DNA of 32,000 nt from NCBI RefSeq assembly GCF_007988965.1, contig NZ_BJVD01000007.1:66625-98624 (forward strand), in the 5' to 3' direction. Positions 19,010-24,487 of the stretch are shown piece after piece; within the stretch, counting starts at the first letter, position 1; each line of letters opens with the position of its first letter. The translations under genes were made by a program, and so were the position numbers. This DNA comes from Rummeliibacillus stabekisii. GTDB taxonomy: Bacteria > Bacillota > Bacilli > Bacillales_A > Planococcaceae. Under the pieces are notes generated by a model. The model ran no database searches. It was not told where the DNA came from and worked only from the letters and a program-made list of their open reading frames with translations.

Positions 19010-19756
19010 TTGAGCAATGACAATCAAAAAGATATCTCAAGACGGGATTTCTTGAAAACAACTGGTATTGCAACAGGAACTTTGATCGGCGGAGGTTTAA
19101 TCGGTGGCTTGATCGGCTACAATTCGAAAAAAACTGCCGCACCGTCTAAAACTAACCAGTCACATTCGAACAAAACATCTGAGACTAGCCAAGGGAAGAT
19201 GTACTTTACAACAGATGCAGATTTTAATGTTTTAGCAGCTGCTACGGAACGTATTTTTCCAAAGGATGATTTAGGTGGCGGAGCTATTGATCTTGGCGTC
19301 CCTTATTTTATTGACCGTCAGCTGGCAGGTCAATATGGCAGTAATTCGAAAGAATATATGCAAGGACCTTTCCATGATGGATCCCCAACGCAAGGCTATC
19401 AAACACGTTTAACGCGAGCAGAGATTTTCTCTGAAGGCGTTTCTAAGCTGGAACAAGAAGCGCAAAAACGCTATAAAAAAGGTTTTACTGATATTTCGGA
19501 TAAAGAGCGTGACGTGATTTTAACGGCATTCCAAAAAGATAAGGTGAAGATGAAAGGCGTATCTGCCGCATTCTTCTTTAATTTGCTCCGGTCAGCAACC
19601 ATTGAGGGCGCGTATGCCGATCCTCTATATGGAGGCAATCGCAATATGGAAGGATGGAAGATGAAAGGTTTCCCTGGACATCAAATGTCCTATATCAATG
19701 TGATTGAAAAAGAGGGATTCCAAAAAATTGCACCAAAATCTTTAGGTATGCATTAA
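19010..19756 (+). CDS. Gluconate 2-dehydrogenase subunit 3-family small subunit with twin-arginine signal
   Basis: TTG start 6 nt after AAGGGAGGT. The Tat motif SRRDFLK is followed by the hydrophobic stretch TTGIATGTLIGGGLIGGLIG. The size and the C-terminal GGNRNMEGWK pattern fit the small-subunit family. Confidence 0.8.
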   Translation: MSNDNQKDISRRDFLKTTGIATGTLIGGGLIGGLIGYNSKKTAAPSKTNQSHSNKTSETSQGKMYFTTDADFNVLAAATERIFPKDDLGGGAIDLGVPYFIDRQLAGQYGSNSKEYMQGPFHDGSPTQGYQTRLTRAEIFSEGVSKLEQEAQKRYKKGFTDISDKERDVILTAFQKDKVKMKGVSAAFFFNLLRSATIEGAYADPLYGGNRNMEGWKMKGFPGHQMSYINVIEKEGFQKIAPKSLGMH

Positions 19757-19771
19757 TAGGGGGTATGGATT

Positions 19772-21481
19772 ATGGCGAAAACATTGCCAAAGGTTGATGT
19801 AGTAACAGTCGGTGTAGGCTGGACAGGCGGAATTGTAGCCGCAGAATGTACAAAAGCAGGATTGAAAGTAGTTGGCTTGGAAAGAGGTAAAGAGCGTGGA
19901 ACCAAAAACTTTGCGAACGTCCACGATGAATACCGTTATGCTATTCGATATGAATTGATGCAAGATTTATCAAAAGAAACAGTTACCTTCCGTAACAACC
20001 GTAAACAACAAGCTTTGCCGATGCGCCAACTAGGTTCATTCCTGTTGGGTGAAGGGCTAGGCGGCGCTGGTACTCACTGGAATGGACAAACATTCCGTTT
20101 CTTACCGTATGATTTTAAAATTAAATCTATTACTGATAAAAAGTATGGAAAGAATTTCTTAGGATCCGATTACATCCTGCAAGATTGGGGGATGGATTAT
20201 GATCAAATAGAGCCATACTACGATAAATTTGAAAAAATAGCCGGTATTAGCGGTGAAAAAAATCCACTTGGTGGCAAACGATCAGATGATTATCCAACAA
20301 AGCCGATGAAAAAGACACCTCTGTTGAAAAAGTTCGAGACTGCAACTAAAAAAATGGGGTATCACCCGTACATGATGCCATCTGCGAACCTATCTGCACC
20401 GTACAAAAACCAATATGATCAAAATATTAATGCATGCCAATATTGTGGTTTCTGCGAACGTTTTGGCTGTGAGTATGGCGCGAAAGCAACGCCGGAAGTA
20501 AGTGTTATTCCAGCAGCATTAAAAACGGGTAAATATGAAATTCGCTTTAACTCAAATGTTGTAGAAGTTCTTACTAAAGGAAATAAAGCAACAGGCGTAA
20601 GATATATTGATTCTGTAACAGGAGAAGAATATATTCAACCAGCAGATGTGGTTGTTCTCAGCGCATTTATGATGAATAACGCTAAATTGCTGATGATCTC
20701 TAAAATTGGTACTATGTATGACCCGAATACAGGTAAAGGAACTTTAGGGCGTAATTATTGCTATCAAATTATGCCAGGTGCAACTGGTTTTTATGATGAG
20801 CAATTTAATACATTTATGGGTGCTGGTGCACTAGGTGAATGTTTAGATGACTTTAATGGCGATAACTTTGACCACTCTAAACTAGGTTTTATTCACGGTG
20901 CGAATATTGCATTAACCCAAATTGGTTTACGTCCAATTGGGAACAACCCAACGCATGCCGATACACCGACATGGGGAGCTGAGTTTAAGAAAGAATCAAT
21001 CCAAAACTATACGCGTTCATTGTCTGTTGGTGGACAAGGTGCTTCAATCGCACATAAAGAAAACTACTTAACATTGGATCCGAAATATAAAGACGCATAT
21101 GGCGTGCCTTTATTGCAAGTAAACTATAACTTTACTGATCAAGATCGTAAACTGCACCACTTTATTTCTAAAAAATGTGGCGATATTCTAAAACAAATGG
21201 ATGCCAAAAAAGTAGAAGTTCGTGCAGATCTAACGGATTATAGCATCGTCCCTTATCAATCAACACATAACACAGGTGGTACTGTAATGAGTAAAACACC
21301 TGAGGATGGGGTAGTTAATAATTACTTACAACACTGGGATTGCGAAAATCTATTCGCAGTGGGTGCTGGTTCATTCCCGAATAACTCAGGTTATAACCCT
21401 ACTGACACTGTTGGCGCTTTAGCGCTTCGCTGTTCTGAAGGGATTATCAAGTATAGCAAAAAAGGTGGATCTTTGGTTTAA
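19772..21481 (+). CDS. GMC-family FAD oxidoreductase (gluconate 2-dehydrogenase flavoprotein-like large subunit)
   Basis: RBS AGGGGG. N-terminal FAD fold VVTVGVGWTGG with no signal peptide. It has GMC N- and C-domain length (569 aa) and sits directly downstream of the small subunit. Confidence 0.85.
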   Translation: MAKTLPKVDVVTVGVGWTGGIVAAECTKAGLKVVGLERGKERGTKNFANVHDEYRYAIRYELMQDLSKETVTFRNNRKQQALPMRQLGSFLLGEGLGGAGTHWNGQTFRFLPYDFKIKSITDKKYGKNFLGSDYILQDWGMDYDQIEPYYDKFEKIAGISGEKNPLGGKRSDDYPTKPMKKTPLLKKFETATKKMGYHPYMMPSANLSAPYKNQYDQNINACQYCGFCERFGCEYGAKATPEVSVIPAALKTGKYEIRFNSNVVEVLTKGNKATGVRYIDSVTGEEYIQPADVVVLSAFMMNNAKLLMISKIGTMYDPNTGKGTLGRNYCYQIMPGATGFYDEQFNTFMGAGALGECLDDFNGDNFDHSKLGFIHGANIALTQIGLRPIGNNPTHADTPTWGAEFKKESIQNYTRSLSVGGQGASIAHKENYLTLDPKYKDAYGVPLLQVNYNFTDQDRKLHHFISKKCGDILKQMDAKKVEVRADLTDYSIVPYQSTHNTGGTVMSKTPEDGVVNNYLQHWDCENLFAVGAGSFPNNSGYNPTDTVGALALRCSEGIIKYSKKGGSLV

Positions 21482-21535
21482 CCAATAACCTTCTCTAAAG
21501 CTAAATCAAAAATCAAATAAAAGGAGTGATGCATC

Positions 21536-21751
21536 ATGGGCATAGGTGCCATTGGTATTCCTGGATTAATCATTATTTTAGTCATTGTACTTATCGTTTT
21601 TGGTCCAAAAAAATTGCCGGAGATTGGTTCTGCAGTAGGCAAAACTTTCTCTGAGTTTAAAAAATCTACTCAAGGCCTAATGGATGAACATGAAGAACCT
21701 AAAAAGGAAACGATCACAACTGTCAAAGTAAAGGATAAAAACGAAATTTAA
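21536..21751 (+). CDS. tatA: Twin-arginine translocase protein TatA/E
   Basis: RBS AAGGAG. One TM helix followed by [10 protein letters not shown] and an amphipathic helix. 71 aa. Confidence 0.9.
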
Positions 21752-21766
21752 TTAGAGGGTGTTCGT

Positions 21767-22651
21767 ATGGATCCGTATGAAGAAAATAAAAAGAAAGTAC
21801 TTAGCCCTTTGGATAAATTAGACGAAAGCGAATACGAAGGGAGCGAAGAGGCTGCGGCTGTTGAGCCCGTCTCCCCAGCTCCTTCCGCCTCTCTCGAGAT
21901 CGAAGAGGAGCAGGGATTGGAAAGCTCCTTTAGGGATACGAGCGAAGCATTTGTTGAACATCTGGCGGAACTTAGAAAACAACTTATCAAAGGGTTAGCT
22001 GTTTTTCTCTTTTTCTTTATTCTTGTATTTGCGACAGTCAACAAATGGCTTCCGTATGTAACAAGAGGGCACGACTTAGTCATCTTAGGGCCTCTTGAAG
22101 TTGTTAAATTTTATATGTCCATCTCTACAACAGTTGCTGTAGGACTTTCATTGCCATTCTTAATGCACTTTATATGGTCATTTATAAAACCGGGTTTAAA
22201 AGAAAACGAAAAAGGTTTTCTTGGTTTATATTCGCCCGTTATGCTTCTGTTATTTCTCTTAGGGGTGGCTTTCGGCTATTTTGTCATTAACCCAATTAGC
22301 TACCATTTCCTTGTAGGCATAGGCGAATCGAATTTCAACGTAATGATCTCAGCAGCTCAGTACATGAGCTATCTCATCATGACGACAGTCCCAATTGGAT
22401 TATTGTTTGAATTACCGATTATTGCTATGTTTTTATCGACAATAGGCGTTCTAACATCAGATACGATGAAGAATATTCGAAAATGGTCTTACGTTATTAT
22501 GGCCGTTTTCTCAGCACTTATAACACCGCCTGATTTTATGAGCCAATTGTTGGTACTCGTACCGATGGTTCTTCTTTATGAGATCAGTATATATATCGTG
22601 AAGAAATTGGAAAGAAAAAGAGAATTACAAGAAGAAAGTTTTAGTTCATAA
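21767..22651 (+). CDS. tatC: Twin-arginine translocase subunit TatC (start ambiguous: ATG 21767 or in-frame TTG 21917)
   Basis: The canonical TatC N-terminus FVEHLAELRKQLIK begins only at about residue 62 of the long ORF. Six TM segments follow. Both candidate starts have good RBSs: GAGGGTG before 21767 and GAGGAG before 21917. Confidence 0.85.
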   Translation: MDPYEENKKKVLSPLDKLDESEYEGSEEAAAVEPVSPAPSASLEIEEEQGLESSFRDTSEAFVEHLAELRKQLIKGLAVFLFFFILVFATVNKWLPYVTRGHDLVILGPLEVVKFYMSISTTVAVGLSLPFLMHFIWSFIKPGLKENEKGFLGLYSPVMLLLFLLGVAFGYFVINPISYHFLVGIGESNFNVMISAAQYMSYLIMTTVPIGLLFELPIIAMFLSTIGVLTSDTMKNIRKWSYVIMAVFSALITPPDFMSQLLVLVPMVLLYEISIYIVKKLERKRELQEESFSS

Positions 22652-22656
22652 ATAGG

Positions 22657-22698
22657 AAAAGCTTGTTGATCAGGAATAGCGGGTCAGCAAGCTTTTTT
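22657..22698 (+). terminator. Rho-independent terminator after tatC
   Basis: AAAAGCTTGTTGA / TCAGCAAGCTTTT stem with a G-U pair, followed by TTTCT. Confidence 0.75.
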
Positions 22699-22712
22699 CT
22701 GCTTATGCTGCT

Positions 22713-23159
22713 GAGCCGAGATAATTAGAGTTTCTGTAATAGAGGAGCGAGTGGCCGTAATTTCATCGTGAGTGTCTGAATAATTGGTTGAGTGTCCGTA
22801 ATAGAGCAGCGAGTGACCAAAAAAGGTAGTTGAGTGGCCCTAATCGAGACGAGTGGCCGTAATTTCATCGTGAGTGACCTGAATAATTGGTTGAGTGTCC
22901 GTAATAGAGGAGTGAGTGACCAAAAAAGGTAGTTGAGTGGCCCTAATCGAGGCGAGTGACCGTAATTTCATCGTGAGTGACCTGAATAATCGGATGAGTG
23001 TCTGTAATAGAGGAGCGAGTGACCAAAAAAGGTAGTTGAGTGGCCCTAATCGAGACGAGTGACCGTAATTTCATCGTGAGTGACCTGAATAATCGGATGA
23101 GTGTCCGTAATAGAGGAGTGAGTGACCTCAATAACCGGTTAAGTGACCCCAATCCCCTC
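22713..23159. repeat. Non-coding higher-order tandem repeat: five about 19-21-bp monomers (core GAGTGNCCNNAAT) forming a 102-103-bp unit, with 4 full copies plus a degenerate left remnant
   Basis: Unit starts at 22749, 22851, 22954 and 23057. Monomer order is conserved in every unit: ...CCGTAATTTCATCGT / ...CCTGAATAATYGGWT / ...GTAATAGAGSAGY / ...CCAAAAAAGGTAGTT / ...CCCTAATCGAGRC. By eye the units are about 94-95% identical. The last two monomers (23120-23159) and the left edge (22713-22748) are degenerate. Confidence 0.95.
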
Positions 23160-23353
23160 GAGACTTTCCGATAGGTTTGCCGTATGTAACAGCAGGGCAT
23201 AAATCCTAATAATTGCAAATACAATTCCTTAAGGAGTAATAGTTTATTGAAAGCGAATACATCGAAATTCGTTAATTTATACGATTTATTTTTATAATTT
23301 ACATGCATGTCCGTCAATTTCTAGAAAGGCTATTTAACGATAAAGGATGGGGT

Positions 23354-24487
23354 ATGATGAAAGAAAAGTTAAAGGAAATAGAGTCGAAGCTCAAGGGAAT
23401 ATTTCAACATCTGCACGCTAATCCGGAAATCGCGTGGGAGGAATACCGCACAACAGAATATATTGAATCGTTATTGCAAGAAGAAGGTTATAAGGTCCAT
23501 ACATTAAAAGACAGTACGGGTCTGTATGTTGAGATCGGGGAAGGCAAGCCGGTTGTTGGTTTAAGGACAGATATGGATGCCCTTTGGCAGGAAGTAGACG
23601 GGGAAATGCGAGCCAATCATTCATGTGGACATGATGGGCACATGACTATGATTATTGGGGTGCTACTTCTTATGAAAAAGTTGTCAATCGAGTGGAAGGG
23701 AACCTTGCGTGTTTTATTCCAACCGGCTGAGGAAAAGGGACAAGGGGCTCTTTCCTTTGTGGAACGGGGATTGATCGATGATGTAGATTATTTGTTTGGT
23801 GTACATTTGCGTCCTATACAGGAGCTCGAAGATGGCACTTTTTCGCCGGCCATCCATCATGGCGCATCCATGACTATTTCCTCGGAAATTTATGGTGTTG
23901 AAGCTCATGCTGCAAGGCCGCATTTAGGTAAGAACGCAATCGAAGTGGGGAGCAGCCTAGTAGAAGCTTTAAAATCCATTCGTATCGATTCAATGATTCC
24001 CTATTCCGCAAAGGTGACGGTTTTCCAGGCTGGAGGCAGATCAGGCAATATCATACCCGGCAAAGCATTCATTAACGTGGATGTAAGAGCCCAAACGAAC
24101 GAAGGCATGCAAGAGTTATATAAAGATATTCAGCGCATTGTTAAAGGAGTTAGTACTTTATATGAAGCGAATATTGAGTTAAAGGTTTTGACTGATATAG
24201 CGGCAGCGAAAGTAAATGAGGAAGCGGAAGAGATTCTAAAACACGCGATTATAGAGTCTGTCGGTGAAGAAAAACTAAGGCCTGCCCTCTTTACACCAGG
24301 AGGGGAAGACTTCCATTTTTACAGCAAATTGAGGCCACATATTAAAGCTACTATGCTAGGATTAGGGTGTGGTTTATCCCCAGGGCTACATCACCCTGAT
24401 ATGACATTCAACCATGCCCAGCTTTTGCCTGGAGTTGAAATACTAACGAGATCAGTTTTAAAAGCAACTGGTTCAACAGTCAAATAA
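23354..24487 (+). CDS. M20D-family amidohydrolase (N-acyl/N-succinyl amino acid hydrolase type)
   Basis: ATG at 23354 (or 23357) after AAAGGATGGGG. Metal-site motif HSCGHDGH. LHANPEIAWEE and GLRTDMDAL are typical of M20D aminoacylase/hippuricase-like enzymes. Confidence 0.8.
   Translation: MMKEKLKEIESKLKGIFQHLHANPEIAWEEYRTTEYIESLLQEEGYKVHTLKDSTGLYVEIGEGKPVVGLRTDMDALWQEVDGEMRANHSCGHDGHMTMIIGVLLLMKKLSIEWKGTLRVLFQPAEEKGQGALSFVERGLIDDVDYLFGVHLRPIQELEDGTFSPAIHHGASMTISSEIYGVEAHAARPHLGKNAIEVGSSLVEALKSIRIDSMIPYSAKVTVFQAGGRSGNIIPGKAFINVDVRAQTNEGMQELYKDIQRIVKGVSTLYEANIELKVLTDIAAAKVNEEAEEILKHAIIESVGEEKLRPALFTPGGEDFHFYSKLRPHIKATMLGLGCGLSPGLHHPDMTFNHAQLLPGVEILTRSVLKATGSTVK

Follow-up and report, generated by a model that had tools for sequence, protein, structure and literature searches.

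A higher-order tandem repeat of strain-variable length between tatC and an M20 amidohydrolase gene in Rummeliibacillus stabekisii

Introduction

Intergenic minisatellites of bacteria, the variable-number tandem repeats (VNTRs) used in MLVA typing, are head-to-tail non-coding repeats whose unit number varies among near-identical strains. Assemblies break in such repeats, and a conserved function is not required for them to persist. The array described here, from Rummeliibacillus stabekisii, is alike in these respects. However, its unit is built of five diverged sub-repeats with a bipartite core, and such higher order is unusual in bacterial minisatellites. The closest parallel for the higher order is found in eukaryotic satellites such as alpha satellite, in which, as here, diverged monomers (~50%) sit in 95%-identical units. 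Unlike alpha satellite, the array measures 0.45 kb and not megabases, has monomers of 21 bp and not of nucleosome size, has no centromere role, and occupies a single chromosomal locus in a bacterium.

Two plasmid systems resemble the array in a different way. Iterons, the Rep-binding repeats of 17-22 bp (about two helical turns), are likewise direct repeats of ~21 bp in one orientation with a bipartite conserved part beside less conserved positions, and the 21-bp spacing within the units of our array has the same geometry. In contrast to iterons, which come in 3-7 copies, the array has 10-25 copies and lacks an AT-rich unwinding element and a plasmid context. Partition centromeres such as the parC sites of R1 and pSK41 are also short direct-repeat arrays, and theirs bind protein cooperatively. 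REP, BOX and ERIC elements share with the array that they are intergenic and non-coding. CRISPR arrays have repeats of ~23-50 bp and unique spacers of similar length.

Array structure

The window, by which we mean the whole 32-kb stretch of R. stabekisii DNA that was analyzed, contains the array in a 705-bp gap between the stop codon of tatC (22651) and the annotated start of an M20 gene (23357), in agreement with the ~700-bp intergenic gap given in the initial annotation of this DNA. Tandem Repeats Finder, which had been suggested there as a check, detected a 103-bp period at 22748-23127 (3.7 copies, 95% matches) and, nested inside it, a 21-bp period (16.4 copies, 58% matches), bearing out the nested 21/103-bp structure. 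Parsing resolved 22713-23165 into 21 monomers of 19-21 bp each (two degenerate copies counted). They are arranged head-to-tail, all on the plus strand, and have the common core GAGTG-N-CC-NN-AAT. Their spacings (21, 21, 20, 21, 21, 19 and so on) average 20.65 bp.

Five monomer types, A-E, follow each other in a fixed order and build a unit of 102-103 bp. Written in monomer types, the array of the window reads (I) C A B C D E A B C D E A B C D E A B C F G, where F is a variant of B (19/21 identical) and G is a variant of E with a 5-nt insertion. The four unit starts claimed previously (22749, 22851, 22954 and 23057) were recovered by parsing, and the earlier estimate of about 94-95% identity between units agrees with the 95% from Tandem Repeats Finder. 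The end of the array had been placed at 23159, but the last monomer reaches 23165. The nesting is evident from the comparison of 95% identity between units with that among types A-E, which is 76% in the core and 22% in the tails. The head-to-tail arrangement and a unit of at least 10 bp are those of a VNTR. Because the monomers within a unit have diverged (~50% overall) while the units are still 95% identical, two rounds of amplification are indicated.

Allowing at most one mismatch, the core GAGTGNCCNNAAT occurs 19 times in 22749-23153, on the plus strand only, and three more times in the other 31.5 kb of the window, each time within a gene. About 1.5 matches are expected per 32-kb window, and none of 100 shuffles reached 22. 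In the same scan, the cores beyond the array were not above chance. The array also stands out by its GC content of 45-48%, compared with 30-38% in neighbouring intergenic DNA.

The features of the locus are collected in Table 1. The sequence of the tatAC terminator is identical in all strains compared. The TatC and M20 proteins encoded on either side exactly match proteins entered under R. stabekisii. We propose, from the arrangement of these elements, that the array lies in a spacer that is not transcribed, with the tatAC terminator on one side and the M20 operon promoter on the other.

Table 1. Features of the tatC-M20 intergenic region and its flanking genes (window coordinates)
Feature	Coordinates	Strand	Basis
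tatA	21536-21751	+	Pfam TatA
tatC, upstream flanking gene	21767-22651	+	Pfam TatC
Predicted intrinsic terminator of tatAC, 13-15-bp stem then T-run	22657-22702	+	Inverted repeat; fold -26.2 kcal/mol, z=-4.1
Two degenerate lead monomers, GAGCCGAGATAATTA and GAGTTTCTGTAATAGAGGAGC	22713-22748	+	Monomer parsing
Unit 1, 102 bp, A B C D E (B monomer 20 bp here)	22749-22850	+	Tandem Repeats Finder, monomer parsing
Unit 2, 103 bp, A B C D E	22851-22953	+	Tandem Repeats Finder, monomer parsing
Unit 3, 103 bp, A B C D E	22954-23056	+	Tandem Repeats Finder, monomer parsing
Partial unit 4, A B C, then B-like F	23057-23140	+	Monomer parsing
Terminal G monomer, E-like; common to long alleles and all short alleles except L175	23141-23165	+	
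Non-repetitive ~190-bp spacer, probable M20 promoter	23166-23356	+	Sequence reading; promoter inferred
M20 aminoacylase-family amidohydrolase, downstream flanking gene	23357-24487	+	Pfam Peptidase_M20, M20_dimer

Variation among strains and species

The exact TatC protein of the window was found on at least 15 contigs, and monomers were counted on those that span the locus. These strains, whose tatC genes differ at 4-7 of 885 nt, have 10, 16, 21, 24 or 25 monomers at this locus and are referred to as long alleles. The 21 monomers of the window (CABCDE(x3)ABCFG) compare with 16 in L121 (CABCDE(x2)ABCFG), 24 in L122, which is the complete genome CP097314.1 (HCCDE(ABCDE)x3 ABCG), 25 in both L123 and L124 (HCCDE(ABCDE)x3 ABCFG) and 10 in L125 (HCCDEABCFG). 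The alleles differ by whole 103-bp ABCDE units and, in addition, by a variant lead and by whether F is present; the lead of the other long alleles differs from that of the window and is 29 bp longer. The order ABCDE is held in all long alleles. Such a difference in unit number at one locus between strains of one species is expected of a VNTR. Some of the assemblies are short-read, and since several short-read contigs break in the array, some of the copy-number differences may be assembly artefacts. The 21 monomers of the window were counted in one assembly; short-read sequence of this strain is broken at either edge of the array (contigs L126 and L178).

All other R. stabekisii sampled (L166-L176) have an unamplified short allele of ~105 bp with the monomers C' D' E' A', an F remnant and G. 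This sample comprised PP9, TYF-LIM-RU47, BSL5, GCA_023713565.1 and several metagenome contigs, and its tatC genes differ at 10-45 of 885 nt. Most of these strains are without any perfect core, and substitutions among them strike core position 5. In the loci retrieved from other Rummeliibacillus and Viridibacillus species, the core motif was found nowhere and there is no array. The Rummeliibacillus relatives have glp genes immediately 3' of tatC, and Viridibacillus has a TetR-family regulator and an MFS transporter there. As the glp genes are missing at this place in R. stabekisii and the array fills the gap, the array probably arose at or after a rearrangement junction. The glp genes in question are glpF and glpK in L157-L160, glpK in L161, and glpD, glpP and glpF in L164 and L165; in L161, the M20 gene comes after glpK.

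This distribution bears on a caveat of the initial annotation, by which any functional interpretation would be undercut if the array were private to a strain and the core conserved nowhere else. That is largely the situation we found. The array is private to a clade, other strains have decayed cores, and neither core nor array occupies the syntenic site in other species.

The two proposed rounds of amplification were corroborated by the sister strains, which keep one unamplified monomer set in the same cyclic order, with unit number varying only in the clade of the window. The existence of the short allele shows that the monomer-level array is older than the divergence of the R. stabekisii lineages. 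Amplification of the 103-bp unit is restricted to a single clade, where it continues to change.

Orthologous monomers of long and short alleles are only ~60-85% identical, compared with 97-99% on the tatC side. On the downstream side, divergence from most short-allele strains is ~4-8% over the first few hundred bp. One strain, L170, has a short array, yet its flanks are nearly identical to those of the window on both sides. Given the divergence of the monomers beside similar flanks, and the mosaic of L170, the allele classes look old and seem to have been reassorted by recombination within the flanks. In L170, recombination breakpoints appear to lie at the array edges, and the spacer as a whole appears to be a local diversity hot spot within R. 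stabekisii. A third haplotype, L175, has unrelated sequence in place of the terminal G monomer region.

The reading we favour, at about even odds, is that the array is a clade-private, fast-evolving, non-coding and dispensable higher-order minisatellite (VNTR) that is resized by slippage or unequal recombination. The structure, the copy-number variation, the restricted distribution and the lack of coding and RNA features were observed, whereas slippage or recombination as the mechanism and the lack of a function are inferred. By this account, the ancestor of R. stabekisii would have had an older run of about six 19-21-bp monomers. In the type-strain clade, the five-monomer block A-B-C-D-E of 103 bp would then have been amplified. 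Whole units may since have been gained and lost by replication slippage or by unequal homologous recombination between the 95%-identical units, and the array sequence itself would be dispensable.

In this reading, the array is mainly of practical interest, as a ready-made marker for typing R. stabekisii and as a cause of breaks in short-read assemblies. It is also a small and clear bacterial case of how higher-order repeats form, with the state before amplification still preserved in sister strains.

Conservation and phasing of the core

A purely neutral history explains one feature of the monomers poorly, and the minisatellite reading is strained by it. Among nine monomer types, core positions 1-3, 11 and 12 do not vary at all and positions 4, 7 and 13 hardly vary, whereas identity at positions 6, 9 and 10 and in the tails is at the random level. 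In this comparison, the core is 71-76% identical and the tails are 22-24% identical.

Conservation of the core while the monomer tails were randomised keeps alive the main alternative, in which the cores are putative sites of a sequence-specific DNA-binding protein, a possibility that we regard as real but rather unlikely. The site would be bipartite and asymmetric, with GAGTG and AAT about one helical turn apart, and its binder might, by analogy with plasmid Rep on iterons or with AraC-type monomers, use two helix-turn-helix or winged-helix modules. With sites 21 bp apart, neighbouring proteins would be able to make contact. The array could then regulate the M20 operon as an upstream platform or act as a titration sink, with unit number setting its capacity. 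The conservation of a bipartite core among 5-9 monomer types with randomised tails speaks for such sites, as do the strictly direct orientation with 21-bp spacing within units, the raised GC content relative to adjacent intergenic DNA, and the position of the array, in DNA that is apparently not transcribed and 128 bp 5' of a -10 element without a good -35. On the other side, the end of the array is ~140 bp upstream of the inferred transcription start, which is far for a classical activator, and the 32 kb contain no other sites. The 28 ORFs of at least 150 aa in the window are all transport or metabolic genes (Pfam scans or precomputed gene calls), with no Rep, Par, transposase, integrase or regulator gene among them, and a gene for a candidate binding protein was thus not found nearby. 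Most R. stabekisii strains have only decayed cores and other species have none, which also argues against binding sites.

Variants within the long alleles favour constraint on the core. Over 96 monomer copies from five long-allele loci, we counted 25 distinct variant events. Seven of the 25 fell at the ten specified core positions, a depletion at P=0.037, and none of the 25 at AGT+AAT (P=0.0002, for a subset chosen post hoc). The comparison of long with short alleles points the other way: core positions are 80% conserved and the rest 81% (Fisher p=1.0), so that between allele classes the core is no better conserved than the tail, and broken cores are tolerated in short alleles. For AGT+AAT, the corresponding values are 90% versus 77% (p=0.18). 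Concerted evolution, limited to the sole segment still able to mispair between neighbours, could explain the pattern among paralogous cores.

It had also been claimed that all cores face the same side of the duplex. The 21 bp between neighbouring cores of a unit equal two turns at 10.5 bp per turn. For the array as a whole, the claim holds only at 10.3 bp per turn, where the cores are on one helical face (resultant length R=0.95). It fails at 10.5 bp per turn, where R=0.20 is like that of random positions and the cores are in phase only within a unit. At that pitch, each 19-bp E monomer turns the phase by -69 degrees, once per unit, and this loss of phase between units counts against binding sites. 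Intrinsic curvature, which had been put forward as a further check, was estimated with a wedge model. The array was not unusual: its ratio of end-to-end to contour length was 0.86, with no predicted excess of curvature, and the same model gave averages of 0.83 for 405-bp segments across the window and 0.87 for shuffles of the array.

A more specific version of the binding-site alternative takes GAGTG-N5-AAT as putative protein sites of R. stabekisii. A five-site module of one clade would have been amplified to an iteron-like titration or regulatory array of 10-25 sites, with capacity tuned by gain and loss of units. We view this version with more doubt than the general one. If the core is a protein-binding site, the locus would be a rare chromosomal binding-site array of strain-variable size and a natural system for studies of titration or cooperative binding.

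Comparison with known families and other sequences

To our knowledge, the core is unlike the CIRCE half-site (GAGTGCTAA), the CtsR, marbox, sigma-H, sigma-D and sigma-54 motifs, and type I restriction sites. The literature yielded nothing relevant to the array. A blastn search of plasmids and phages with the array gave no similarity, a scan of viral sequences for the core pattern gave 0 matches, and the R. stabekisii plasmid pPP9 has no cores and no similar repeats.

The known repeat classes were rejected one by one on structure or context. An identity as plasmid iterons fails on context, as there is no rep gene or origin and no similarity to plasmids, pPP9 included. A tandem-repeat partition centromere was dismissed because the window has no parM, parA or parR and the context is chromosomal housekeeping. 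REP, BOX and ERIC elements were set aside, as the array has no inverted symmetry or hairpin and gives no sign of dispersal within the 32 kb. The conserved part of the array is 13 nt, and the tails of 6-8 nt recur in fixed order, which is incompatible with a CRISPR array.

A scan of a genome collection for three GAGTGNCC cores returned no family member among the matches listed (L001-L120), which were high-GC noise. In metagenomes, two full cores were found at 27 loci. Many of these are tandem arrays of 19-21 bp, with a GC content of 31-68%. No shared gene context was found among these loci, and what is conserved in the diverged arrays L156 and L137 is not the core. Any tandem repeat with one chance core fits the pattern, and we treated these loci as unrelated. 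Arrays of 19-21 bp containing GAGTGNCCNNAAT at very different GC were seen in L141, L146, L148 and L149, in L142/L153, in L144, in L150/L155, in L137 and in L156. In L137, three 20-bp monomers make up a higher-order unit of 60 bp. Another metagenome example, GGAGTGRCCGRAATGYCACCAG, occurs as 3-4 repeats just upstream of gene starts on GC-rich contigs.

Coding and RNA potential

All three plus-strand frames are closed across the array, and the reading frames of the array have no homologues or domains, in support of the non-coding status assigned earlier. No Pfam domain was found in the 124-aa ORF of the minus strand, and a six-frame composite of the array had no match among 5.8 billion proteins. 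An exhaustive HMMER search with the minus-strand ORF against 1.84 billion representatives gave a single match, P0147, which is spurious and repetitive. P0147 is a 414-aa predicted 'protein' that amounts to a translated long tandem repeat, of the kind produced when gene callers translate repeat arrays. The initial annotation had tentatively mentioned similar 'SDRN' pseudo-proteins annotated in other Bacillaceae and, with them, a dispersed repeat family. Neither suggestion was supported, as the six-frame search came back empty and HMMER returned nothing but the spurious match; moreover, R. stabekisii belongs to the Planococcaceae and not to the Bacillaceae.

The lack of hairpin symmetry was also upheld. 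No inverted repeats were found inside the array, and both strands fold less stably than shuffles (z=+1.6). None of the Rfam 15 covariance models matched the array at the gathering score, and at E-values up to 1 there were weak matches only, over the terminator region. A structured RNA or Rfam family was rejected on these grounds. The array is non-coding, does not form a structured RNA or hairpins, and has no mobile-element, plasmid or phage link.

An unstructured transcript is a different matter. If the array were transcribed, an RNA with ~20 GAGUG...AAU motifs might be bound by an RNA-binding protein or a small RNA, for which it would be a sponge or a platform. All motifs are indeed on one strand, and they would be single-stranded, because both strands are less structured than shuffles. 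Nevertheless, we judge such a role very improbable: a strong terminator lies directly upstream, no promoter-like site was found within the array, there is no Rfam match, and the same distribution among strains and species that favours the minisatellite reading speaks against it. Least credible of all is a decayed gene for a protein of 7-residue (21-nt) repeats, with xxL(L/F)RxL on the minus strand or S-x-R/L-N-xxx on the plus strand. In its favour, the 21-nt period equals seven codons, and open frames of 43-124 aa are present on the minus strand. However, no frame is maintained across the 19-bp E monomer and the 103-bp unit, the plus frames are all closed, gene callers leave the domain-less 124-aa ORF uncalled, and neither protein search gave a genuine homologue.

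Flanking genes and the M20 spacer

The first ~130 bp of the non-repetitive spacer are ~92% conserved between allele classes (alignment, counted by eye). The spacer has a TATAAT at 23293-23298 with a poor -35 and a ribosome-binding site at 23342-23347. It also contains a perfect 10-bp palindrome, TCCTTAAGGA, at 23226-23235, with AAGGAG within it. Ten nt 3' of the palindrome, we noticed a TTG-initiated ORF of 16 codons (23247-23297, MKANTSKFVNLYDLFL) that overlaps the TATAAT. In the short-allele haplotype, its reading frame is preserved, although several amino acids differ. The palindrome and the ORF may serve the M20 operon, as an operator or as a leader peptide, or may mean nothing. The M20 gene is followed by genes for an enolase-superfamily enzyme and then a DHH-family phosphoesterase.

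On the other side of the array, genes for a Gluconate_2-dh3 subunit, a GMC oxidoreductase, TatA and TatC are adjacent on the plus strand (19010-22651). Every locus retrieved via TatC, whether from R. stabekisii, another Rummeliibacillus or Viridibacillus, has this order. This conserved dehydrogenase-tatA-tatC order suggests a dedicated Tat export pair for that dehydrogenase.
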